Shown piece by piece: positions 7,727 through 25,090 of a stretch of DNA of 64,000 nt. This DNA comes from an uncultured Acidobacteriota bacterium. Its GTDB lineage: Bacteria; Acidobacteriota; Thermoanaerobaculia; Gp7-AA8; CAVUJZ01. The stretch spans positions 2,099-66,098 of the forward strand of contig CAVUJZ010000010.1 in NCBI GenBank assembly GCA_963741905.1, in the 5' to 3' direction. A model generated the notes under the pieces. It did not search any database. It saw nothing but the letters and a program-made list of their open reading frames with translations, and was not told the origin of the DNA. Each line of letters begins with the position of its first letter. The first letter of the stretch is position 1. Both the position numbers and the translations under genes were made by a program.

Positions 7727-9010
7727 ATGGCTGAGATCATCATGCCCAAGATGGGCGACGCGATGACCGAAGGAAAGGTCGTCCAGTGGTACAAGAAGGC
7801 GGGAGACTCCGTCAAGAAGGGCGAGCCGATCCTGGAGATCGAGACGGACAAGGTCAATCTCGATCTCGAGGCGGAAGAAGACGGCGTTCTGGGCAAGATC
7901 GAGGTCGAGGCTGGTTCCATGGTGGACGTCGGAACCCGGCTCTCCTGGATCGGCGATGGCGCCGGAGCGCCGCCGAAGAAGGCCGCGAAGAAGGAAGAGA
8001 AGAAGGCCGCGAAGAAGGAAGAGAAGAAGGAGGAGCCGACCGCGGTCGAGCCGGTGCCGGCGCAACCTCCTGCCGAGGCGCCGCCTGAGCAGGCGGCACC
8101 GGCAGCGCCTCAGCCATCTCGGACGGCGGCGGTTGAATTCGTCCGCTCCTCTCCGCTGGCTCGCCGGATGGCGAAAGACCTCGGCGTCGAGCTGAGCTCG
8201 GTGGCCGGGAGTGGCCCGGGAGGGAGGGTGATCGCCGCGGATGTGAAGAAGGCGTCGGAGCAGAAGCCTCGAGCACGGGCCGCAGGCGCCCCGCCGGCTC
8301 AGGCGTCGATGCCTCCGGCCGCGGGTCTCGAGGAGAAGGAGATTCCACTCTCCGGAATGCGGCGGACCATCGCGCGACGGTTGAGCGAGTCGATCGGACC
8401 GATCCCGCACTTCTTCCTGACCATCGATCTCGATGTGACCGACCTGATGCGAACCCGCGCGCAGTTGAACGACATCCAGCCGGTGAAAACGAGCGTGAAT
8501 GACTTCGTGATCCGAGCTGCCGCACTGGCGATCCTGCATCATCCGAATGTGAATGCGAGCTTTACCGGAGAGTCGATCCGGCAGCACGGGCACGTCCACA
8601 TGGGCATTGCGGTGGCAACGCCGGAGGGTCTGCTCACGCCGGTGATCCGGGATGCGGACCAGCAGTCGGTTCCGCAGATCGCCTCCGCGTCGCGGGATCT
8701 CGCCGAGCGGGCGCGAAACCGCAAGCTCAAACCGAACGAATACGAAGGCAGCACCTTCACCATCTCCAACCTCGGGATGTTCGGCATCGAGGAGTTCACC
8801 GCAATCATCAATCCTCCCAACTCCGCGATTCTTGCGGTCGGGTCGGCGATGAGCAGGCCGGTCGTCGTGGATGGAGAGATCGTGGTGCGCGAACGGATGA
8901 AGATCACCATGTCCTGCGATCACCGGGTGATCGATGGTGCGGCGGGCGCGGAATATCTGAGGACGCTTCGGCAATATCTCGAACAGCCTCTGCGACTGAT
9001 CGTCTCCTGA
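7727..9010 (+). CDS. Dihydrolipoamide acetyltransferase (E2): lipoyl domain, Lys/Glu/Ala/Pro linker, E3-binding domain, catalytic domain
   Basis: Lipoyl motif EIETDKV, PSBD-like SPLARRMAKDLGV, and catalytic DHRVIDGA near the C-terminus. Confidence 0.9.
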   Translation: MAEIIMPKMGDAMTEGKVVQWYKKAGDSVKKGEPILEIETDKVNLDLEAEEDGVLGKIEVEAGSMVDVGTRLSWIGDGAGAPPKKAAKKEEKKAAKKEEKKEEPTAVEPVPAQPPAEAPPEQAAPAAPQPSRTAAVEFVRSSPLARRMAKDLGVELSSVAGSGPGGRVIAADVKKASEQKPRARAAGAPPAQASMPPAAGLEEKEIPLSGMRRTIARRLSESIGPIPHFFLTIDLDVTDLMRTRAQLNDIQPVKTSVNDFVIRAAALAILHHPNVNASFTGESIRQHGHVHMGIAVATPEGLLTPVIRDADQQSVPQIASASRDLAERARNRKLKPNEYEGSTFTISNLGMFGIEEFTAIINPPNSAILAVGSAMSRPVVVDGEIVVRERMKITMSCDHRVIDGAAGAEYLRTLRQYLEQPLRLIVS

Positions 9011-11170: not shown

Positions 11171-12270
11171 CGGGATGCCGGAAAAGATCGATGAGCTGAA
11201 AGAACGGATGACTGCGATTCGAGGTTATCTTTGACCTCGACAGTGCGCAGAAAAGCCTGAAGGAAATCGAGCAGCAGATGTCCGCCGATGGCTTCTGGAA
11301 TGACCAGGAGCGGGCTCAGGAGGTCGGACGCAAGCGGGCCCGGATCGAAAAGCGGCTCCAGACCGGCAGATCTCTCGAGGAGAAGAACGAGGAGATCAAC
11401 GTTCTCCTCGAACTGGGGAAAGAGGGAGAGGACGTCACTGCCGACCTCGAAAAGCTGCTGACTCAGCTCGAAAAGGACATCTCCGAGGTGGAGATGCGGA
11501 TGAAGCTGTCCGGTGAGCACGACGACCGCGACGTCATCTTCTCGATTCATCCGGGAGCAGGGGGGACCGAGTCCCAGGACTGGGCGGACATGCTGCTCCG
11601 GATGTATCTCCGCTACTGCGAGCGGCACGACTTCGAGACGGAAATGGTCGAGTATCAGGCGGGGGAAGAAGCCGGGGTGAAGAGCGTGACCTTCATGGCC
11701 CGCGGCGACTACGCATACGGCTATCTCAAGAGTGAGCACGGGGTGCATCGGCTGGTGCGGATCTCGCCCTTCGATGCGAACAAACGGCGACATACCTCCT
11801 TCGCCTCCGTCTACGTCTATCCCGACATCGACGAGGAGATCGAGATCGAGGTTCAGGACAAGGACCTGCGGATCGACACCTACCGTTCCTCCGGGGCGGG
11901 AGGGCAGCGCGTCAACGTCACCGACTCCGCGGTGCGCATTACCCATCTGCCGACGGGTCTGGTCGCCACCTGCCAGAACGAGCGCAGTCAGGGGCGCAAC
12001 CGCGAGACGGCGATGAAGCTTCTCAAGGCCAAGCTCTACCAGCTCGAATTGGAGAAACGTCAGGAAGAGCAGGCGAAGCTGGAAGGGGAAAAGAAGGAGA
12101 TCGGGTTCGGCAGTCAGATTCGATCCTATGTCCTCCAGCCCTACCAGCTCATCAAGGACATGCGCACCGGCTACGAGGTGGGAGATGTTCAGCGGGTGCT
12201 CAACGGCGAGCTCGACGGCTTCATCGAGGCCTATCTCGGCCAGAAGGCGAGAACATCGGCGGCGGAGTAG
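11163..12270 (+). CDS. prfB: Peptide chain release factor 2 with programmed +1 frameshift: join(11163..11231,11233..12270)
   Basis: Frame 0 from ATG 11163 reads MRDGMPEKIDELKERMTAIRGYL and ends at CTT TGA C (11229-11235), with SD-like GAGG 3 nt upstream. This matches the classical prfB recoding site. The +1 frame continues DLDSAQKSLKEIEQQMSADGFWND... and contains GGQ (SGAGGQRVN) and SPF (RISPFD). The track lists only 11278-12270. Confidence 0.9.
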
Positions 12271-12280
12271 CCCGGAACGG

Positions 12281-13669
12281 GACAAGTTCGGGTGGCGAAA
12301 AAGGTGGCTTGACGCTGCCGAGGATCGAAGCGGCAACGGTGGGGTAGTCGATGGTGAATCGACCGCGCCGCGGTTGAGTCTCGGGAGTCCAGGGATTCAG
12401 GCCGGAATCATCCCACCGCCATCTTCGTCCGCACGCCGCGCGCTTCGCGCTTGCCGCGCGGGAAGTTTGTCGAGGTTTCATGGGCTGCGCAGGGATCCCT
12501 TTTCTCCTGAGTTGGAACCGCGTCGCGGGAGCGGGCGTGGGAACGCCCGCTCCACCTGCACCGGGCGTCTCGCAGGTGGCCGAACTTTGTCACGGATGCG
12601 GCGGGATGCCGATCGTACTCGGGATTGCGGCGGCGAGCATCCGGGACAAGTTCGGGTGGCGAAAAAGGTGGCTTGACGCTGCCGAGGATCGAAGCGGCAA
12701 CGGTGGGGAAGTCGATGGTGAATCGACCGCGCCGCGGTTGAGCCTCGGGAGTCCAGGGATTCAGGCCGGAATCATCCCACCGCCATCCTCGTCCGCACGC
12801 CGCGCGCTTCGCGCTTGCCGCGCGGGAAGTTTGTCGAGGTTTCATGGGCTGCGCAGGGATCCCTTTTCTCCTGAGTTGGAACCGCGTCGCGGGAGCGGGC
12901 GTGGGAACGCCCGCTCCACCTGCACCGGGCGTCTCGCAGGTGGCCGAACTTTGTCACGGATGCGGCGGGATGCCGGTCGTACTCGGATTGCGGCGGCGAG
13001 CATCCGGGACAAGTTCGGGTGGCGAAAAAGGTGGCTTGACGCTGCCGAGGATCGAAGCGGCAACGGTGGGGAAGTCGATGGTGAATCGACCGCGCCGCGG
13101 TTGAGTCTCGGGAGTCCAGGGATTCAGGCCGGAATCATCCCACCGCCATCCTCGTCCGCACGCCGCGCGCTTCGCGCTTGCCGCGCGGGAAGTTTGTCGA
13201 GGTTTCATGGGCTGCGCAGGAATCCCTTTTCTCCTGAGTTGGAACCGCGGCGCGGGAGCGGGCGTGGGAACGCCCGCTCCACCTGCACCGGGCGTCTCGC
13301 AGGTGGCCGAACTTTGTCACGGATGCGACGGGATGCCGGTCGTACTCGGATTGCGGCGGCGAGCATCCGGGACAAGTTCGGGTGGCGAAAAAGGTGGCTT
13401 GACGCTGCCGAGGATCGAAGCGGCAACGGTGGGGAAGTCGATGGTGAATCGACCGCGCCGCGGTTGAGCCTCGGGAGTCCAGGGATTCAGGCCGGAATCA
13501 TCCCACCGCCATCCTCGTCCGCACGCCGCGCGCTTCGCGCTTGCCGCGCGGGAAGTTTGTCGAGGTTTCATGGGCTGCGCAGGAATCCCTTTTCTCCTGA
13601 GTTGGAACCGCGGCGCGGGAGCGGGCGTGGGAACGCCCGCTCCACCTGCACCGGGCGTCTCGCAGGTGG
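12281..13669. repeat. Tandem array of about 3.8 copies of a 363-bp GC-rich, hairpin-rich unit, flanked by the 9-bp direct repeat CCGGAACGG (12272-12280 and 13670-13678)
   Basis: The motif GGGACAAGTTCGGGTGG recurs at 12279, 12643, 13006 and 13369 (periods 364/363/363). By eye, copies 2 and 3 differ at 4 positions. Confidence 0.9.
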
Positions 13670-13720
13670 CCGGAACGGACAGAGTCCGCCTACCATGGTC
13701 CAGTGCTCTCGTCATCCGCC

Positions 13721-18764: not shown

Positions 18765-19961
18765 TCAAACGGCGGTTGTGCTCCGATTGTTTCCGGCACC
18801 TGGCCTGAGAAACAGCAGCACTGCCGCGGCCAGGGCGAGGCCGGCCCCCGCGTGAAACGCCGTCGTGGGCGTGAAGCGTTCCCACAGCCACCCGAACAGA
18901 GCGGTTCCCGCCAGTGTGCCGAGACCGGCCGTCATTGCATAGATCCCGAAGGCCTTGCCTCGCAGCTCGCTCCGGATCGGGATGGAGATCCAGGCTCGTT
19001 CCGCCCCTTCGGTCAGGGCGAATGGAAACGCGTACACGATGAAGAGAATCAGAAAGGTGGAGCGGCTGGAGGAGAGAGGGAAGATCAGGTAGACCCCGGC
19101 GTAGATGGTCCATCCGGCGGCGAGCATCCACCGGCGGTCCATTCGATCGGAGAGAGCCCCGGCATGGGTGGAAAAGAGCGCCTTGACCGCGTGATGCGCC
19201 GCCCAGAGCAGCGGGATCCAGGCGGTCGCCACGCCCGCGTCCCGGGCGCGGAGGATCAGATAGACGTCGCTGGAGTTCGCGAGATAGAAGACGAGAATCG
19301 GCAGCAGAGAGCTCCAGAACGGTGCGGGAAGCGGTCCTCGAGCGAGGGAAAGGCGTTGCGGAGTCATCGGCTCGGTCCGCCGTTCCTTCAGGAAGAGGAA
19401 CAACATCAGGACACCGACGGCGGAGGGAATCACGGCGATGAGGAAGATGGTGCGGAACGGAAGATGGAACCATCCGAGGAGCGCCGCGGCAATCAGCGGG
19501 CCGAAGACTGCACCGGTGTGGTCCAGCGCCCGGTGGAGGCCGAACGCCCGCCCCCGATCCTCCACCGGGGTGACGTCGCAGATCATGGCGTCCCGTGGGG
19601 CGGTACGAATGCCCTTCCCGGTCCGATCGAGCAGCCGCCCGGCGAGCACCACCGGCCAGGAACCTGCCAGGGCAACGATCAGGCGGGCAACCGAGGCGGT
19701 GGCATAGCCGCCGGCGACCAGCGGCTTCCGCCGGGGCATTCGATCCGACACGTATCCGGAGATGAGCTTGAGAAATGCGCCGATCGTGTCCGCGCTGCCT
19801 TCGATCAGCCCGATCAGCAGAGGAGCCGCTCCCAGGGTACCCGCGAGGAACAGCGGTAGCAGAGGAAAGATCATGTCGCTCGAGATGTCGTTGAGCATCG
19901 CGGCGACGCCGAGGAGCACGACCTGGGGTCGGATGCGATGGCGGAGGGGCTTGCTCATCAC
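18765..19961 (-). CDS. MFS transporter
   Basis: 398 aa, about 12 hydrophobic segments, GRLLDRTGKG-type loop motif. Confidence 0.85.
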   Translation of the reverse strand: MMSKPLRHRIRPQVVLLGVAAMLNDISSDMIFPLLPLFLAGTLGAAPLLIGLIEGSADTIGAFLKLISGYVSDRMPRRKPLVAGGYATASVARLIVALAGSWPVVLAGRLLDRTGKGIRTAPRDAMICDVTPVEDRGRAFGLHRALDHTGAVFGPLIAAALLGWFHLPFRTIFLIAVIPSAVGVLMLFLFLKERRTEPMTPQRLSLARGPLPAPFWSSLLPILVFYLANSSDVYLILRARDAGVATAWIPLLWAAHHAVKALFSTHAGALSDRMDRRWMLAAGWTIYAGVYLIFPLSSSRSTFLILFIVYAFPFALTEGAERAWISIPIRSELRGKAFGIYAMTAGLGTLAGTALFGWLWERFTPTTAFHAGAGLALAAAVLLFLRPGAGNNRSTTAV

Positions 19962-20842
19962 CGATCAGCGGGGTCCGCAGCTTCGTCTTGATCCAGCCTC
20001 CAGCCGCCGCTGTAGACATTGAATCGGCCGTCGCGGACGAATCCGAGAAGCGTCATGCCCCAGGTACGGGCGAGATCGATCGCCAGGCTGGATGGCGCGC
20101 CCACCGCGGCCATCGCCGGAATCCCCGCGACCAGTGCCTTCTGGACCAGCTCGAAGCTGGCCCGTCCGCTCACCATCAGGATGTGCCGCCCGAGCGGGAC
20201 GTCTCCTCGCTCGAGCGCCGCCCCCACCAGCTTGTCGAGAGCGTTGTGGCGGCCGACGTCTTCGTGGACCGCCACGAGCGTACCCCGGGCGTCGAACAGA
20301 GCCGACGCGTGGAGCCCTCCGGTGCAGTCGAACAGCTCCTGGCGCTCGCGGAGCGCTTCCGGCAGCCGGTGAATCACCCCCGGGCCGATCCGGAAGCCGT
20401 CACGGTCGATTGGCCGGAGGCCGGTCACCCGTAGCGCCTCAATGGAGGTTTTTCCGCAAACGCCGCAGCTCGAGCTGGTGTAGAAGTGCCGCTCGAGGCG
20501 CGACAGATCCACGGCTCCTCCCTCCGCGAGCACCACACGTACCGTGTTGTGAAAACCGGAATCGGGAGCGGGAGGTCCGCAGGTCCCGATCGAGGAGATG
20601 TCCGCCGCACTCCGAACGATCGATTCTCCGAACAGAAACCCTCTGGCGAGGTGGAAGTCCTCACCGGGCGTGCGCATGGTGATCGAGATCGCCTTCTCCA
20701 GGTGCTCACCGTCTCGATCGAATGCGAGACGGATCTCCAGCGGCTCCTCGATCGCCACCAGGTCATCTGCGGAGCTTCGTCGTGAGCTGGAGATCCGCTC
20801 CACTCGAACCGGCGCCGCGGACGCTATGGGATTGCTGGCCAT
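19958..20842 (-). CDS. fdhD: Formate dehydrogenase accessory sulfurtransferase FdhD
   Basis: 294 aa. SSCGVCGK active-site motif and GGLHASALF...GRHNALDK. GGAGGA lies upstream of the ATG. Confidence 0.9.
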   Translation of the reverse strand: MASNPIASAAPVRVERISSSRRSSADDLVAIEEPLEIRLAFDRDGEHLEKAISITMRTPGEDFHLARGFLFGESIVRSAADISSIGTCGPPAPDSGFHNTVRVVLAEGGAVDLSRLERHFYTSSSCGVCGKTSIEALRVTGLRPIDRDGFRIGPGVIHRLPEALRERQELFDCTGGLHASALFDARGTLVAVHEDVGRHNALDKLVGAALERGDVPLGRHILMVSGRASFELVQKALVAGIPAMAAVGAPSSLAIDLARTWGMTLLGFVRDGRFNVYSGGWRLDQDEAADPADR

Positions 20843-20903
20843 GGATCCTCCGAATCCTACCGCGAATCTGCAGAGTTCGCGCCGGGTCGGTGAGAGGCTA
20901 AGA

Positions 20904-21071
20904 GGTGAGACGGTGAGACGGTGAGACGGTGAGACGGTGAGACGGTGAGACGGTGAGACGGTGAGACGGTGAGACGGTGAGACGGTGAGATGGTGAGACG
21001 GTGAGACGGTGAGACGGTGAGACGGTGAGACGGTGAGACGGTGAGACGGTGAGACGGTGAGACGGTGAGAC
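20904..21071. repeat. Short tandem repeat array A: (GGTGAGAC) x 21
   Basis: 168 bp of perfect 8-bp units with a single variant (GGTGAGAT near 20990). A degenerate copy lies at 20889-20896. Confidence 0.95.
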
Positions 21072-21150
21072 GGGTGGCCCCGGGGGGGAGCCGGAGGCCC
21101 AACGCCAACCAGACGTGCCTCCCACCCTCCACGCCCGATCTACTTCTAAC

Positions 21151-21347
21151 CTCCAACCTCTAACCTCCAACCTCCAACCTCCAACCTCCAACCTCCAACC
21201 TCCAACCTCCAACCTCCAACCTCCAACCTCCAACCTCCAACCTCCAACCTCCAACCTCCAACCTCCAACCTCCAACCTCCAACCTCTAACCTCCAACCTC
21301 CAACCTCTCAACCTCTAACCTCTAACCTCTAACCTCTAACCTCTAAC
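21151..21347. repeat. Short tandem repeat array B: (CTCCAAC)n core flanked by CTCTAAC variants, about 28 units
   Basis: 197 bp = 27 units of 7 bp plus one 8-bp variant (CTCTCAAC), read directly. Confidence 0.95.
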
Positions 21348-21455
21348 CTTTCACCTTCTGCCAGGCGATCCCTCCGATTCCGGGCCCGCACCTTCCCCCG
21401 GACCGTGCTCCCCGATATGATTCGCCCCGCAAACAACTGAAGAAGGGAGTATCTG

Positions 21456-22337
21456 ATGGCAGACATCAAGAAGGTCGGAGTGCTCGGCTGTGGGCTGATG
21501 GGCTCCGGAATCACTCAGATCGCGGCCCAGGCCGGGTATCAGACGGTGGTGGCCGAGGTCGAACAGAAGTTTCTCGACAAGGGACGGGCGGGGATCGAGA
21601 AGAGTCTCGGCCGTTTCGTCGAAAAGGGAAAAATGACCGCGGAGGATCGCGACGCATGCCTCGGACGGGTCCAGACCACCACGAAGCTGGAGGATCTGGC
21701 GGAGTGCGACATCGTGGTCGAAGCGATCGTGGAGAATGCCGAGGTGAAGCGATCCACCTACTCGGCGATCGACAGCATCGTGAAAAAGGATGCGATTTTC
21801 GCATCCAATACCTCCTCGCTGACGATCACCGAGCTGTCGATGGCCACGGCTCGGCCGAAGCAGTTCGTGGGGCTGCACTTTTTCAACCCGGTGCCGATGA
21901 TGAAGCTCGTCGAGGTGGTTCGAACGATCCTCACCTCGGATGAGACCTTCGACCGAGCGTTCGCCTTCGCGAAGTCGCTCGGCAAGGAACCGATCGCCTG
22001 CCGCGACAACTCCGGATTCATCGTCAACCGTCTGCTGGTGCCCTATCTTCTCGATGCGATCCGGGCCTACGAAGAGGGCGTCGGCTCGATCGAGGACATC
22101 GACAAGGGGATGGTGCTCGGCTGCGGTTATCCGATGGGCCCGTTCACCCTGCTCGACTTCGTCGGACTCGATACCACCTACTACATCACCGAGGTGATGT
22201 TCGAGGAGTATCACGAAAAGCGGTTCTCTTCGCCTCCGCTGCTCCGCAAGATGGTGCTGGCAGGCCGGCACGGCCGGAAGAGCGGCGCAGGGTTCTACGA
22301 CTACTCCGGCGAAAAGCCGGTGGCGATGGATCGGTAG
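21456..22337 (+). CDS. hbd: 3-hydroxybutyryl-CoA (3-hydroxyacyl-CoA) dehydrogenase
   Basis: VGVLGCGLMGSGI Rossmann motif, HFFNPVPMMKLVEV, 293 aa. Confidence 0.9.
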   Translation: MADIKKVGVLGCGLMGSGITQIAAQAGYQTVVAEVEQKFLDKGRAGIEKSLGRFVEKGKMTAEDRDACLGRVQTTTKLEDLAECDIVVEAIVENAEVKRSTYSAIDSIVKKDAIFASNTSSLTITELSMATARPKQFVGLHFFNPVPMMKLVEVVRTILTSDETFDRAFAFAKSLGKEPIACRDNSGFIVNRLLVPYLLDAIRAYEEGVGSIEDIDKGMVLGCGYPMGPFTLLDFVGLDTTYYITEVMFEEYHEKRFSSPPLLRKMVLAGRHGRKSGAGFYDYSGEKPVAMDR

Positions 22338-22460
22338 TTCTGGAGTTCTGGAGTTCTGGAGTTCTGGAGTTCCGAGTTCTGAAGTTCTGGAGTTCCGGAG
22401 TTCCGAGTTCTGAAGTTGTGGAGTTCTGAAGTTGTGGAGTTCTGGAGTTGGAGTTCTGGA
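22337..22460. repeat. Short tandem repeat array C: (GTTCTGGA)n, about 16 units with variants (GTTCCGA, GTTCTGAA, GTTGTGGA, GTTGGA)
   Basis: Starts on the last base of the hbd stop codon TAG (22335-22337) and ends 10 bp before the crt SD. Confidence 0.95.
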
Positions 22461-22482
22461 GCTGGCGAGTGAGGAGGAACTG

Positions 22483-23274
22483 GTGGGATACGAGAATCTG
22501 GAAAATGTGAAGACGGAGAATCGGGACGGGATCCTGGTCGTCACCATCGACAGGCCGAAGGTTCTGAATGCGCTCAACGCGCAGACGGTCGAAGAGATCG
22601 GCCGGATCTTCGACGAGGCGCGGGACGATGCCGCGGTCAGGGCGGTGATCGTGACCGGTGGTGGTGAGAAGGCATTCGTGGCCGGCGCGGACATCAACGA
22701 ACTGGCGAAGAAGGATCCGAACAGCGGGAAGATCACCTCGGAGCGCGGCCAGCAGATTCTTTCGCGGATGGAGCGGTTTCCGAAGATCGTCATCGCGGCG
22801 ATCAACGGTTTCGCTCTGGGCGGAGGATGCGAGATCGCCCTGGCCTGCCACATCCGGATCGCCTCGGACAAGGCCCAGATCGGACTGCCCGAGGTGACCC
22901 TCGGGATCATTCCGGGATACGGCGGCACGCAGCGGATGGCCCGGCTTCTCGGAAAGGCGAAAGCGCTGGAGCTGATCTGCACGGGTGAAAAGATCCGGGC
23001 GGACGAGGCCGAAAAAATCGGCCTGGTGAACCGGGTCGTTCCGGCGGAATCGTTGATGGAAGAGTGCGAGAAGATGGCGAGAACCATCATGTCTCGGGGC
23101 CCGCTGGCCGTGCGTGCGGCGATCGAGGCGATCAACAGCGGCATGGAGATGCCTTTCGAGGAGGGACAGTTCCTCGAGGCGACGCTGTTCGGGCTCCTCT
23201 GTGCTTCAGAGGACCAGAAGGAAGGGATGAACGCGTTTCTGGAGAAGCGGCCGGCAGAGTTCAAGGGAAAGTAG
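22483..23274 (+). CDS. Enoyl-CoA hydratase (crotonase family)
   Basis: I chose GTG 22483 because GAGGAGGA lies at 22471-22478. The track start at 22432 lies inside the repeat array. Motifs: VTGGGEKAFVAGADI, ALGGGCEIALAC, AFLEKRPAEF. Confidence 0.85.
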   Translation: MGYENLENVKTENRDGILVVTIDRPKVLNALNAQTVEEIGRIFDEARDDAAVRAVIVTGGGEKAFVAGADINELAKKDPNSGKITSERGQQILSRMERFPKIVIAAINGFALGGGCEIALACHIRIASDKAQIGLPEVTLGIIPGYGGTQRMARLLGKAKALELICTGEKIRADEAEKIGLVNRVVPAESLMEECEKMARTIMSRGPLAVRAAIEAINSGMEMPFEEGQFLEATLFGLLCASEDQKEGMNAFLEKRPAEFKGK

Positions 23275-23365
23275 GTTGTTCGAATCGCCGTGCGGGCCGG
23301 GGAAGTTCATTCCGCCGGCCCGCGTTGACGAAGGGTACCGAAATCAGCTCCCGGGGGAACGATCG

Positions 23366-24616
23366 ATGGAAGAGCGAGTCGACGATCTGATCTATGACTG
23401 GAATGTGGCCGGCGAGAAGCCGGTCTACCCGGGGCGTCCGATCCAGTTCGATGACGAGACGCTGCGGGACGGGCTCCAGTCCCCGTCAGTCAAGGATCCT
23501 TCGATCGAGGAAAAGCTCCGGATCCTCCATTTCATGGAAGAGATCGGGGTGGATTCTGCCGACATCGGTCTTCCGGGCGCCGGTCCGCACGTTCAGGCGA
23601 CCGTGCAGCGTCTGGCCGAGGAAATTCGCGATCAGAAGATGAAGGTCGCGGCGAACTGTGCGGCCCGGACGCATCAGAACGACATTCGACCGATCGCCGA
23701 GATCTCGCAGCGGGTGGGGATTCCCATCGAGGCCTGTACCTTCATCGGTTCCTCCCCGATCCGTCAGTTTGCCGAGGAATGGGATCTCGACTGGCTGCTG
23801 GAGCAGACGACCAAAGCGGTTCGATTCGCGGTGGGCGAGGGACTTCCGGTGATGATGGTCACCGAGGACACCATCCGGGCGAAGCCCGAGGACGTGGAGA
23901 AGATCTACACCGCGGCCATCGAAGCCGGTGCGACCCGCGTTTGTGTTTGCGATACGGTCGGCCACGCGACCCCCTGGGGCGCGCGGAATCTGGTGCGCTT
24001 CGTTCGTGGCATCGTCGAGCGGGTCAATCCGGAGGTGGGCATCGACTGGCACGGGCACTCGGACCGGGGGCTGGGGGTGATCAATACCATTGGAGCGATC
24101 GAGGGCGGTGCCGACCGGGTTCACGGCTGCGCTCTCGGGATCGGCGAACGGGTCGGCAACACTCCGATCGATCTGTTGATGGTCAACCTCAAGCTCCTGG
24201 GCTGGATCGACAACGACCTGCACAGCCTCCCTGAATATGTGAAGTTCGTCTCCCGGGCGACGGATGTGATGCTGACGGATCAGTATCCGGTCTTCGGGCG
24301 GGACGCTTTTCGCACCGGAACCGGTGTTCATGCGGCGGCGATCATCAAGGCGAAGATGAAGGGGAGCGACTGGCTTGCGGACCGCGTCTACTCCGGAGTT
24401 CCGGCGGGAGAGTTCGGCCTGGAGCAGATCATCGAGGTCGGGCCGATGTGCGGCCTGTCGAATGTCATTTACTGGCTGCAGGTTCACGGGTATCCTCAGG
24501 AGGAAGATCTGGCGAAAGAGATCTTTGGCAAAGCAAAATCCTCGAACCGGATTCTGACGGACGAGGAGCTTCACGGGGCCGCGCGCCGCTGGCTCGACCT
24601 GCAGGCGACGGGGTGA
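23366..24616 (+). CDS. LeuA/HMGL-like family protein (2-isopropylmalate/homocitrate synthase-like aldolase-type TIM barrel)
   Basis: [12 protein letters not shown] and [28 protein letters not shown] motifs. ATG 23366 preceded by GGGGGA. Exact substrate not determinable. Confidence 0.75.
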
Positions 24617-24943
24617 GTGGTGAGAGTGAGCGGTGAGAAGTGAGCGGTGAGAAGTGAGCGGTGAGAAGTGAGCGGTGAGAAGTGAGCGGTGAGAGTGAGC
24701 GGTGAGAAGTGAGCGGTGAGAAGTGAGCGGTGAGAGAGTGAGCGGTGAGAAGTGAGCGGTGAGAGTGAGCGGTGAGAAGTGAGCGGTGAGAAGTGAGCGG
24801 TGAGAAGTGAGCGGTGAGAAGTGAGCGGTGAGAAGTGAGCGGTGAGAAGTGAGCGGTGAGAAGTGAGCGGTGAGAAGTGAGCGGTGAGAAGTGAGCGGTG
24901 AGAAGTGAGCGGTGAGAAGTGAGCGGTGAGAAGTGAGCGGTGA
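24613..24943. repeat. Tandem repeat array D: (GTGAGCGGTGAGAA)n, about 23.6 units of 14 bp with a few 13- and 15-bp variants
   Basis: The first unit contains the TGA stop (24614-24616) of the upstream gene. An inverted partial unit at 24972-24983 pairs with 24930-24941 (12 bp). Confidence 0.95.
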
Positions 24944-25003
24944 TCGGTCGCACGGCAGAACAGTCGTCTCGACCGCTCACTTCTGACCTCTCGCCGTCTT
25001 TCT

Positions 25004-25090
25004 GCCCGAGTGGCGAAATTGGTAGACGCAGCAGACTCAAAATCTGCCGTCCTCCCGGACATGCCGGTTCGAGTCCGGCCTCGGGCACCA
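25004..25090 (+). tRNA. tRNA-Leu (anticodon CAA), long variable arm, encoded CCA
   Basis: Acceptor GCCCGAG/CTCGGGC, anticodon stem-loop GCAGA-CTCAAAA-TCTGC, variable arm GTCC..GGAC, T arm GCCGG-TTCGAGT-CCGGC, then A-CCA. Confidence 0.9.

Follow-up and report, generated by a model that had tools for sequence, protein, structure and literature searches.

Long tandem-repeat arrays around an acidobacterial hbd-crt-leuA operon as probable over-expanded arms of small intergenic hairpins

Repeat arrays at the hbd-crt-leuA locus

We analysed a stretch of 64,000 nucleotides (contig CAVUJZ010000010.1; hereafter the window) from an uncultured Acidobacteriota bacterium, in which four long tandem-repeat arrays (A to D) lie around the genes hbd (encoding a 3-hydroxyacyl-CoA dehydrogenase), crt (encoding an enoyl-CoA hydratase) and leuA (encoding a LeuA-like protein). 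A comparison with related genomes made it probable that these arrays are over-expanded arms of small hairpins composed of tandem 7-8-nt units, which are found throughout the lineage in many intergenic gaps, mostly at operon edges. Repeats were located with Tandem Repeats Finder (TRF), and the features of the locus are as follows.

19958-20842, minus strand: FdhD/NarQ-family gene, the first gene of the leftward operon, divergent from hbd (Pfam PF02634, E=1.3e-61)
20888-21073, plus strand: array A, (CGGTGAGA) x23.4, 94% matches (TRF, unit listing)
20889-20914, plus strand: outer base of array A (GGTGAGAGGCTAAGAGGTGAGACGGT), complementary to the outer end of array B (alignment against the reverse complement of 21332-21355)
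21074-21147, no strand: spacer between A and B, 74 bp, G+C-rich, a putative former loop region (sequence)
21148-21349, plus strand: array B, AACCTCC x28.7, 96% matches (TRF, unit listing)
21332-21355, plus strand: outer end of array B, pairs with 20889-20914 (local alignment)
21416-21421, plus strand: TATGAT, possible -10 box of hbd, ~67 nt after B (sequence and upstream regions of relatives)
21456-22337, plus strand: hbd, 3-hydroxyacyl-CoA dehydrogenase (Pfam PF02737 and PF00725)
22336-22461, plus strand: array C, (GTTCTGGA) x16, degenerate, 81% matches (TRF, unit listing, inverted-repeat search)
22483-23274, plus strand: crt, enoyl-CoA hydratase, GTG start preceded by GAGGAGGA (Pfam PF00378)
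23366-24616, plus strand: LeuA-family/HMGL-like gene, its TGA stop inside the first, degenerate unit of array D (Pfam PF00682)
24613-24943, plus strand: array D, (GTGAGCGGTGAGAA) x23.8, 97% matches (TRF, unit listing)
24972-24999, plus strand: hairpin 3' arm (ACCGCTCACTTCTGACCTCTCGCCGTCT) (inverted repeats of 21 nt at 90% and of 28 nt at 82% complementarity)
24996-25003, plus strand: GTCTTTCT, weak T-run between hairpin and tRNA, 5 T in 8 (sequence)
25004-25090, plus strand: tRNA-Leu(CAA), directly after the hairpin, in the same order in nearly all relatives (ARAGORN; Rfam, 58.6 bits)

Arrays A and B are both located in the divergent gap between the FdhD/NarQ-family gene and hbd, array C extends from the hbd stop codon to the ribosome-binding site of crt and array D starts at the leuA stop codon. 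A preliminary description of the locus had every intergenic gap filled; in fact three of the four gaps of the block are occupied, and the 91-bp gap between crt and leuA (23275-23365) has no array. The units measure 8 (A), 7 (B), 8 (C) and 14 nt (D), the 14-mer of D consisting of two diverged 7-mers, and the unit of C, given earlier as the 9-mer GTTCTGGAG, is the 8-mer listed above. All four arrays consist of near-identical head-to-tail units (81-97% matches, 16-29 copies), as is characteristic of simple sequence repeats or variable number tandem repeats, and they differ from CRISPR (clustered regularly interspaced short palindromic repeats) in that the units are contiguous and without spacers (unit listing).

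The arrays cannot be put down to a single assembler. In a separate Logan assembly of run ERR11718636, a contig of 2304 bp (L001; contigs and loci other than the window are given as L with a number) corresponds to window positions 22345-24648 and carries an identical LeuA-like protein; it begins within C and finishes within D, which means that both are present in the reads and break de Bruijn assembly. This second assembly bears on the presence of C and D, not on A, B or the copy numbers. Tandem repeats are a known source of assembly errors (PMC6868369), and an assembler might have invented or inflated the arrays. Next to the breaks exactly within C and D, however, the arrays contain ordered variant units and old complementary ends, and related elements occur at homologous sites in other assemblies, so that we regard an artefact as extremely unlikely.

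Array D and the hairpin between leuA and tRNA-Leu

Between leuA and tRNA-Leu lies a conserved hairpin, of which array D makes up the 5' arm. The units of D form with the 3' arm at 24972-24999 the strongest hairpin or inverted repeat of the whole 64 kb; this arm could pair with any pair of D units, and the end of D folded together with it at -60.1 kcal/mol (z=-5.2). In eight relatives, with ~80% LeuA identity, a tandem-heptamer hairpin was found at the site of D, 10-16 nt before tRNA-Leu, with arm pairs such as GGATGAA/TTCATCC, GGCAGAA/CCTTCTG and GTGAAGA/TCTTCAC and with fold z-scores of -6.6 to -9.3. The alignment of these eight relatives and the window comprised 21 pairs, 93.7% paired, both sides having changed in 12 of the 21; none of 500 shuffles was as good and slid versions of the same alignment reached 42-56% pairing. 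The left arms have a common GAAGNNN skeleton, to which D (GAAGTGA GCGGTGA) conforms.

Within D no differences exist between the 13 units closest to the loop, variants with a length of 13 or 15 nt being confined to the 10 distal units, which points to recent growth at the loop side. Together, D and 24972-24999 form the stable stem-loop that a terminator requires where a transcription unit ends, and its pairing covaries across relatives. T-runs at this site are clear in L140 and L144 but not in L150 and L164. The hairpin may serve as a terminator or as a stabiliser of the 3' end of the mRNA.

Two further observations concern the end of leuA. In L162 (11242-11368) a hairpin of the CCGACAA/TCGGTTG family is nested in the loop of a GGATGAA/TTCATCC hairpin between leuA and tRNA-Leu, which suggests that such elements can be inserted and are not merely grown in place. 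One clade has, within the last leuA codons, a heptamer array with a single arm, (CTCAGTC)n or (ACTCAGC)n, which encodes a C-terminal tail and finishes in the stop codon (L137 9401-9430, L146 11238-11267, L127 11228-11258, L132, L133 and L134).

Arrays A and B upstream of hbd

Judged by their sequences, A probably is the 5' arm and B the inverted 3' arm of one older hairpin upstream of hbd. The outer ends of the two arrays are complementary at 21 of 26 positions, with a local alignment score of 23 versus a shuffle mean of 12.8 (P=0.005, from mononucleotide shuffles of purine-rich sequence), the direct and reversed-only controls scoring 8 and 6, which is background. The duplex of the outer ends had a predicted energy of -32.5 kcal/mol (z=-2.5), and the outer bases were also paired in the minimum-energy fold. 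Array B consists of ~22 copies of AACCTCC followed by an outer sub-array of six AACCTCT units (21302-21344); on the opposite strand these read GGTTGGA (core) and GGTTAGA (outer), at Hamming distances of 2 and 1 from the GGTGAGA of A. The outer units of A are degenerate and the inner ones pure, and the pure units of both arrays point to the centre of the gap.

Where the window has TATGAT, the relatives have a conserved TAGAAT, just 3' of their hairpin. A conserved TTAGAATGCGCC motif, likely the -10 box, is found ~25-33 nt upstream of the hbd start in, for instance, L150, L153, L162, L156 and L146; it directly follows the 3' arm of the hairpin, which places the repeat arm where a -35 element would be. 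A consensus promoter scan of the window gave no match, also not at the TATGAT of 21416-21421.

These positions bear on the possibility that the arrays tune gene expression by phase variation, changes in the copy number of A/B and C altering promoter spacing, leader structure or translational coupling in a heritable and reversible way, as at the hmw loci of Haemophilus influenzae. A/B are indeed flanked by divergently transcribed genes, C separates a stop codon from the ribosome-binding site of the following gene, 16-29 copies and a high purity fit arrays that are still mutating, and a heptamer repeat of similar length governs hmw1A via a hairpin in the 5' untranslated region (UTR) (PMC12721329). 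Nevertheless, the genes concerned belong to housekeeping metabolism and not to surface or contingency functions, the operon of some relatives works with a gap of 0-11 bp between hbd and crt (L127 and L002), and B may be upstream of the likely -10 box of hbd and hence perhaps untranscribed. We therefore consider such tuning unlikely.

Relations among the repeat units

The relation between A and D that had been proposed in the preliminary description was confirmed: the two units have CGGTGAGA(G) in common, and random arrays of 8- and 14-mers reach at least eight common bases with P=0.004. At the level of the sequence, A, B and D make up one unit family (GGTGAGA, GGTTAGA and GGTTGGA), in which B is inverted. 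A second proposed relation, between B and C, did not hold up, as the consensus units share 5 bases (P=0.10) and the 7-base match derives from one variant unit of C; B appears instead as the inverted partner of A. Array C could be a similar arm whose partner has disappeared, or simply an array that slippage produced within the operon. We also considered the window units as members of the unit families of the relatives, which was not convincing, the longest common stretches being only 7-9 nt and driven by variant units.

Occurrence of arrays and hairpins in relatives

A protein-guided scan of metagenome contigs yielded 80 loci, from which 43 non-redundant loci (547 kb), all with a LeuA identity of 75% or more, were taken as the lineage set for the counting of arrays with 7-9-nt units. 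We found 110 arrays (77 heptamers, 28 octamers and 5 nonamers), or ~2 per 10 kb, with a median of 4.45 copies and a maximal length of 61 bp. A reverse-complement partner was present within 200 nt for 80 of the 110 (73%), compared to 1 of 110 in the control. More distant relatives had 11 arrays in 316 kb. Some relatives are devoid of arrays, and the three genes of L127 and L002 follow one another closely, with 0-11 bp between hbd and crt.

The gaps are not occupied to the same extent. Arrays occupied 20/39 sites after leuA, 5/16 upstream of hbd, 2/21 between hbd and crt and 1/11 between crt and leuA, with a baseline of 0.11 sites per kb in the flanks; the hbd-crt and crt-leuA gaps are thus occupied at background rates only. 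The synteny comparison, in other words, showed the same gaps to be occupied in relatives, most often the one after leuA, and two non-redundant loci (L150 and L153) have arrays in precisely the three gaps of the window. Arrays are also spread throughout the flanks, in unrelated gaps, and unit families recur there, for instance GAATGTT/CATTCAA and GGTTGCTG/CAGCAACC; none of the families that are dispersed in relatives was found elsewhere in this window. T- or A-runs, measured from the array ends, flank 10 of 29 two-armed sites versus 8% in controls, so that some of the elements resemble two-way terminators and others REP-like (repetitive extragenic palindromic) hairpins inside operons.

One dispersed family, the GAATGTT/CATTCAA hairpins, has conserved stem bases and flanks (AAAGCGAAAT ... 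ATTTCGCTTTT) and the look of a two-way terminator, and is located in unrelated gaps (L144 16470-16561 and 20812-20910, L151 1917-2007 and 5956-6035, L168 3508-3790, L142 16630-16733 and L164 1292-1401). The same sites carry non-tandem palindromic elements of ~100-150 nt in other relatives; these include the type TTGTCATCCTGAGCC...GGCTCAGGATGACAA after leuA (L142, L147, L148, L158, L168 and L141) and the type GCACAGACAAGAGTGTCTGTGCCACA..., which is found after leuA in L139 and L196 and upstream of hbd in L143.

The arrays of the window are 126-331 bp long versus at most 61 bp in the relatives, that is 2-5 times longer, and single arms appear to have grown on one side; these two features set the window apart. 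None of 56 ends of the relatives' contigs lies within an array, so that there is no sign of long arrays concealed at these sites.

An alternative that has to be weighed against these counts is that the arrays are plain, near-neutral micro- or minisatellites, which arose by independent chance duplications and slippage and have neither a link to hairpins nor a function. Such an origin would agree with the very pure array cores (94-97% matches), with unit lengths that are not multiples of three and a location outside coding sequence, with the lack of a partner arm for C, with the units not being enriched elsewhere in the window, and with the over-representation of heptamer repeats in many bacteria (PMC4692102, PMC12699852). 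It leaves unexplained, however, that a 3' arm matching D is present where relatives have a covarying hairpin, that A and B are complementary at their outer ends, that A and D have a unit core of 8-9 nt in common and that 73% of the arrays of the relatives are hairpin arms. We consider it rather unlikely as an account of the four arrays.

Arrays beyond the lineage

Species-representative genomes were pattern-scanned for GGTGAGA-type arrays and 8-kb blocks around the matches were examined; the counts in this section hold among the matches listed. GGTGAGA-type arrays were found in many phyla, mostly with several other arrays nearby, and the 8-kb blocks contained at least 272 arrays, of which at least 89 had a partner, against 11 in the control. 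Arrays of more than 150 bp occur there as well (L099, L123, L117 and L031), and several contigs finish within arrays. An octamer identical to that of array A, CGGTGAGA, makes up perfect arrays at the ends of contigs from two metagenome-assembled genomes of the Phycisphaerales and one of the Burkholderiaceae (L052 4763-4871, L065 1861-1913 and L070 6926-6980).

Among the units that are common across phyla is (GAGGTGA)n, which we take to equal seven bases of the full Shine-Dalgarno complement (the 16S rRNA 3' end). This raises the question whether the sequence content of the units matters as such. Array B would then act as 28 anti-Shine-Dalgarno cores (CCUCC, or GGAGG on the other strand) that titrate ribosomes or pair with ribosome-binding sites, or it would form a G-quadruplex or i-motif. 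B contains ACCTCC, the complement of GGAGGT, A and D contain GGTGA, and quadruplex formation has been studied for G-rich heptamer repeats (PMC4692102). Yet no such motif is present in the units that relatives have at these sites (GGATGAA, GGCAGAA, CTCAGTC and AGCGCGGT), for which reason neither Shine-Dalgarno mimicry nor a quadruplex was considered further; moreover, G runs do not exceed two and purine-rich units match motifs of this kind easily by chance. An effect of sequence content is, in our view, very unlikely.

Lineage trait or feature of the locus

The preliminary description had proposed a locus-specific mechanism or selection that concentrates related arrays on this block. TRF found no further short-unit array of comparable score in the remaining 60 kb of the window, the array units were not enriched elsewhere in the window by unit search, and the tRNA was the sole Rfam match. 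By our own, post hoc, calculation the chance that four arrays fall inside 4.1 of 64 kb is ~0.001, and that three occupied gaps fall inside four consecutive ones of ~54 gaps ~0.006. These nominal probabilities, together with the single unit family of A, B and D and the occurrence in one clade of relatives of the GGATGAA family both upstream of hbd and after leuA, would favour a mechanism tied to the locus. On the other hand, the clustering test was post hoc, arrays of this kind are present in many unrelated gaps of relatives, occupancy of the hbd-crt and crt-leuA gaps stays at the background rate, and units are shared between operon ends within a genome no more strongly than between genomes of the same clade. 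With ~2 arrays per 10 kb over 547 kb of related sequence, in the same gaps and in unrelated flanking ones, and with GGTGAGA-type arrays in many phyla, the proposed mechanism seems quite unlikely.

The presence of arrays in the same gaps and in the flanks of relatives instead indicates a lineage trait with preferred sites, and the pattern appears to be a habit of a soil-type acidobacterial lineage for which no locus-specific mechanism is required. At the level of the lineage the arrays are thus largely a trait of the genomes, although in these 64 kb they are found here only and are 2-5 times longer than those of the relatives. Site preference explains the concentration within the window only partly. 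The same unit family is found at both operon ends in one clade of relatives (GGATGAA) and, with a different unit, in the window; concerted evolution between the ends was considered for this, and the similarity within genomes is no stronger than that between genomes of one clade, which lends no support to copying between them.

Two other repeats in the window are of a different kind. The absence of comparable arrays from the other ~60 kb, noted in the preliminary description, holds for short units, but one further gap is taken up by a tandem repeat with a unit of 363 bp (12278-13672, x3.8, 99% identical), whose neighbours are a release-factor-2-like gene (11278-12270) and, on the minus strand, an anti-sigma/ECF-sigma (extracytoplasmic function sigma factor) pair. 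The open reading frames inside the repeat are Arg/Gly/Pro-rich and non-coding in appearance, and it had no Rfam match even at E<=1. The repeat at 7975-8035, with units of 12/24 nt (GAAGAAGGCCGCGAAGAAGGAAGA) and hence a period that is a multiple of three, probably is a coding Lys/Glu/Ala-rich stretch that is not related to the arrays.

Comparison with known repeats

Heptamer repeats are over-represented in bacteria and have been described in Xanthomonas, Nostoc, Calothrix, Beggiatoaceae and Bacteroidetes (PMC4692102, PMC4679880, PMC12699852). In the literature searched we found no description of such arrays for Acidobacteriota, in agreement with the preliminary description, and no account of hairpins with tandem-unit stems as a class.

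The closest parallel is found in H. influenzae, where (ATCTTTC)n in the 5' UTR of the adhesin genes hmw1A and hmw2A (10-30 copies) supplies the left arm of a long hairpin whose right arm is short and not repeated; this hairpin acts through RNase III and is needed for changes in repeat number, and expression falls as the copy number rises (PMC12721329). Array D has the same layout, a repeat array as one arm and a unique partner arm at 24972-24999, and a hairpin-dependent change of repeat number would fit the loop-side growth of A, B and D. The hmw array, however, belongs to the 5' UTR of an adhesin gene, whereas D is located at the 3' end of a metabolic operon, before a tRNA.

The short tandemly repeated repetitive (STRR) sequences of cyanobacteria, to which the arrays had been compared before, are a fair analogy, since in both cases short tandem units lie between genes. 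The STRR sequences, the GGGGA(T/C)T repeats of Nostoc and the GGGAATC repeats of Xanthomonas all share with our arrays tandem units of ~7 nt, an intergenic location near gene ends and a length that varies between relatives, and some of the Xanthomonas heptamers form inverted pairs (PMC4692102). They differ in phylum and in unit sequence, the units here being 7, 8, 8 and 14 nt long, and we found no published link of these repeats to conserved, covarying hairpins at fixed sites. The window is not from a heterocystous cyanobacterium, the best matches of the LeuA-like protein being from Thermoanaerobaculia/Acidobacteria. Its units, we presume, are also different from the STRR1-3 sequences.

The TAACTGA direct repeats of Beggiatoaceae, Cyanobacteria and Bacteroidetes are intergenic as well and reach 43 copies, several different heptamer arrays can be present in one gap, and the corresponding gaps of close relatives are shorter and without repeats (PMC4679880). 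Intergenic heptamer arrays, several different ones per gap, are thus common to both systems. In contrast to our arrays, TAACTGA is one unit across phyla, mostly located immediately before start codons, and its inversion is very rare (a single indirect repeat in 170 sets) (PMC4679880). REP sequences, bacterial interspersed mosaic elements (BIMEs) and intrinsic terminators are similar in being short palindromic intergenic elements that form dispersed families at operon ends or interiors, some with flanking A- or T-runs. The stems described here differ in that they consist of tandem 7-8-nt units and are able to slide and grow; neither a GTAG/CGTC tag nor a RAYT (REP-associated tyrosine transposase) was seen, although no search aimed at them was made.

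Origin and possible role of the arrays

If the arrays are over-expanded hairpin arms, the ancestral elements would have been short hairpins with 4-8 units per arm, like those of the relatives. Replication slippage in this genome, the likely mechanism of growth, would then have added identical units at the loop side of single arms, giving rise to arrays of 126-331 bp and leaving pairing only in the old outer parts (A/B) or in the last two units (D). In D, the functional portion would probably consist of these two units and the 3' arm. Located immediately ahead of the tRNA, the hairpin may terminate the hbd-crt-leuA transcript or shield its 3' end; the additional 300 bp of D are probably near-neutral.

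Several observations weigh against this explanation. An inverted-repeat search found no partner arm for array C, the unit of which is not significantly related to those of the other arrays. The fold of the whole of A with the whole of B as a hairpin was no better than that of shuffles (z=-1.26), so that pairing is limited to the outer 25 nt, and the significance of that pairing derives from mononucleotide shuffles of a purine-rich sequence. A terminator scan made no call at D, where the T-run is weak. Compared with the relatives, expansion beyond 61 bp is seen in the window only and is unexplained, and the rest of the window is without the small hairpin arrays that are common in some relatives, so that the local concentration is not fully explained.

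More tentatively, hairpins of tandem 7-8-nt units might constitute a distinct and widespread class of dispersed elements, present in Acidobacteriota and, as paired arrays, also in Gemmatimonadota, Bacteroidota and Verrucomicrobiota. Such elements would mark operon edges, keep their pairing while the units turn over, be nestable and be able to run away into one-armed arrays, and one family would bracket hbd-crt-leuA at both ends within a genome. The same family at both ends of the operon could reflect a shared binding factor or copying between the ends.

Should the over-expansion of hairpin arms hold as an explanation, it would link the ~7-nt tandem repeats of bacteria to REP-like and terminator hairpins, two kinds of element that are usually treated apart. 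Long intergenic arrays would then originate by runaway slippage of one hairpin arm, which would explain both their placement at gene ends and the breaks of short-read assemblies at these positions, and the locus would offer a testable case of a long-conserved structure the sequence of which has been replaced unit by unit. For the organism itself, the locus-specific mechanism gives way to a lineage-wide habit with preferred sites.

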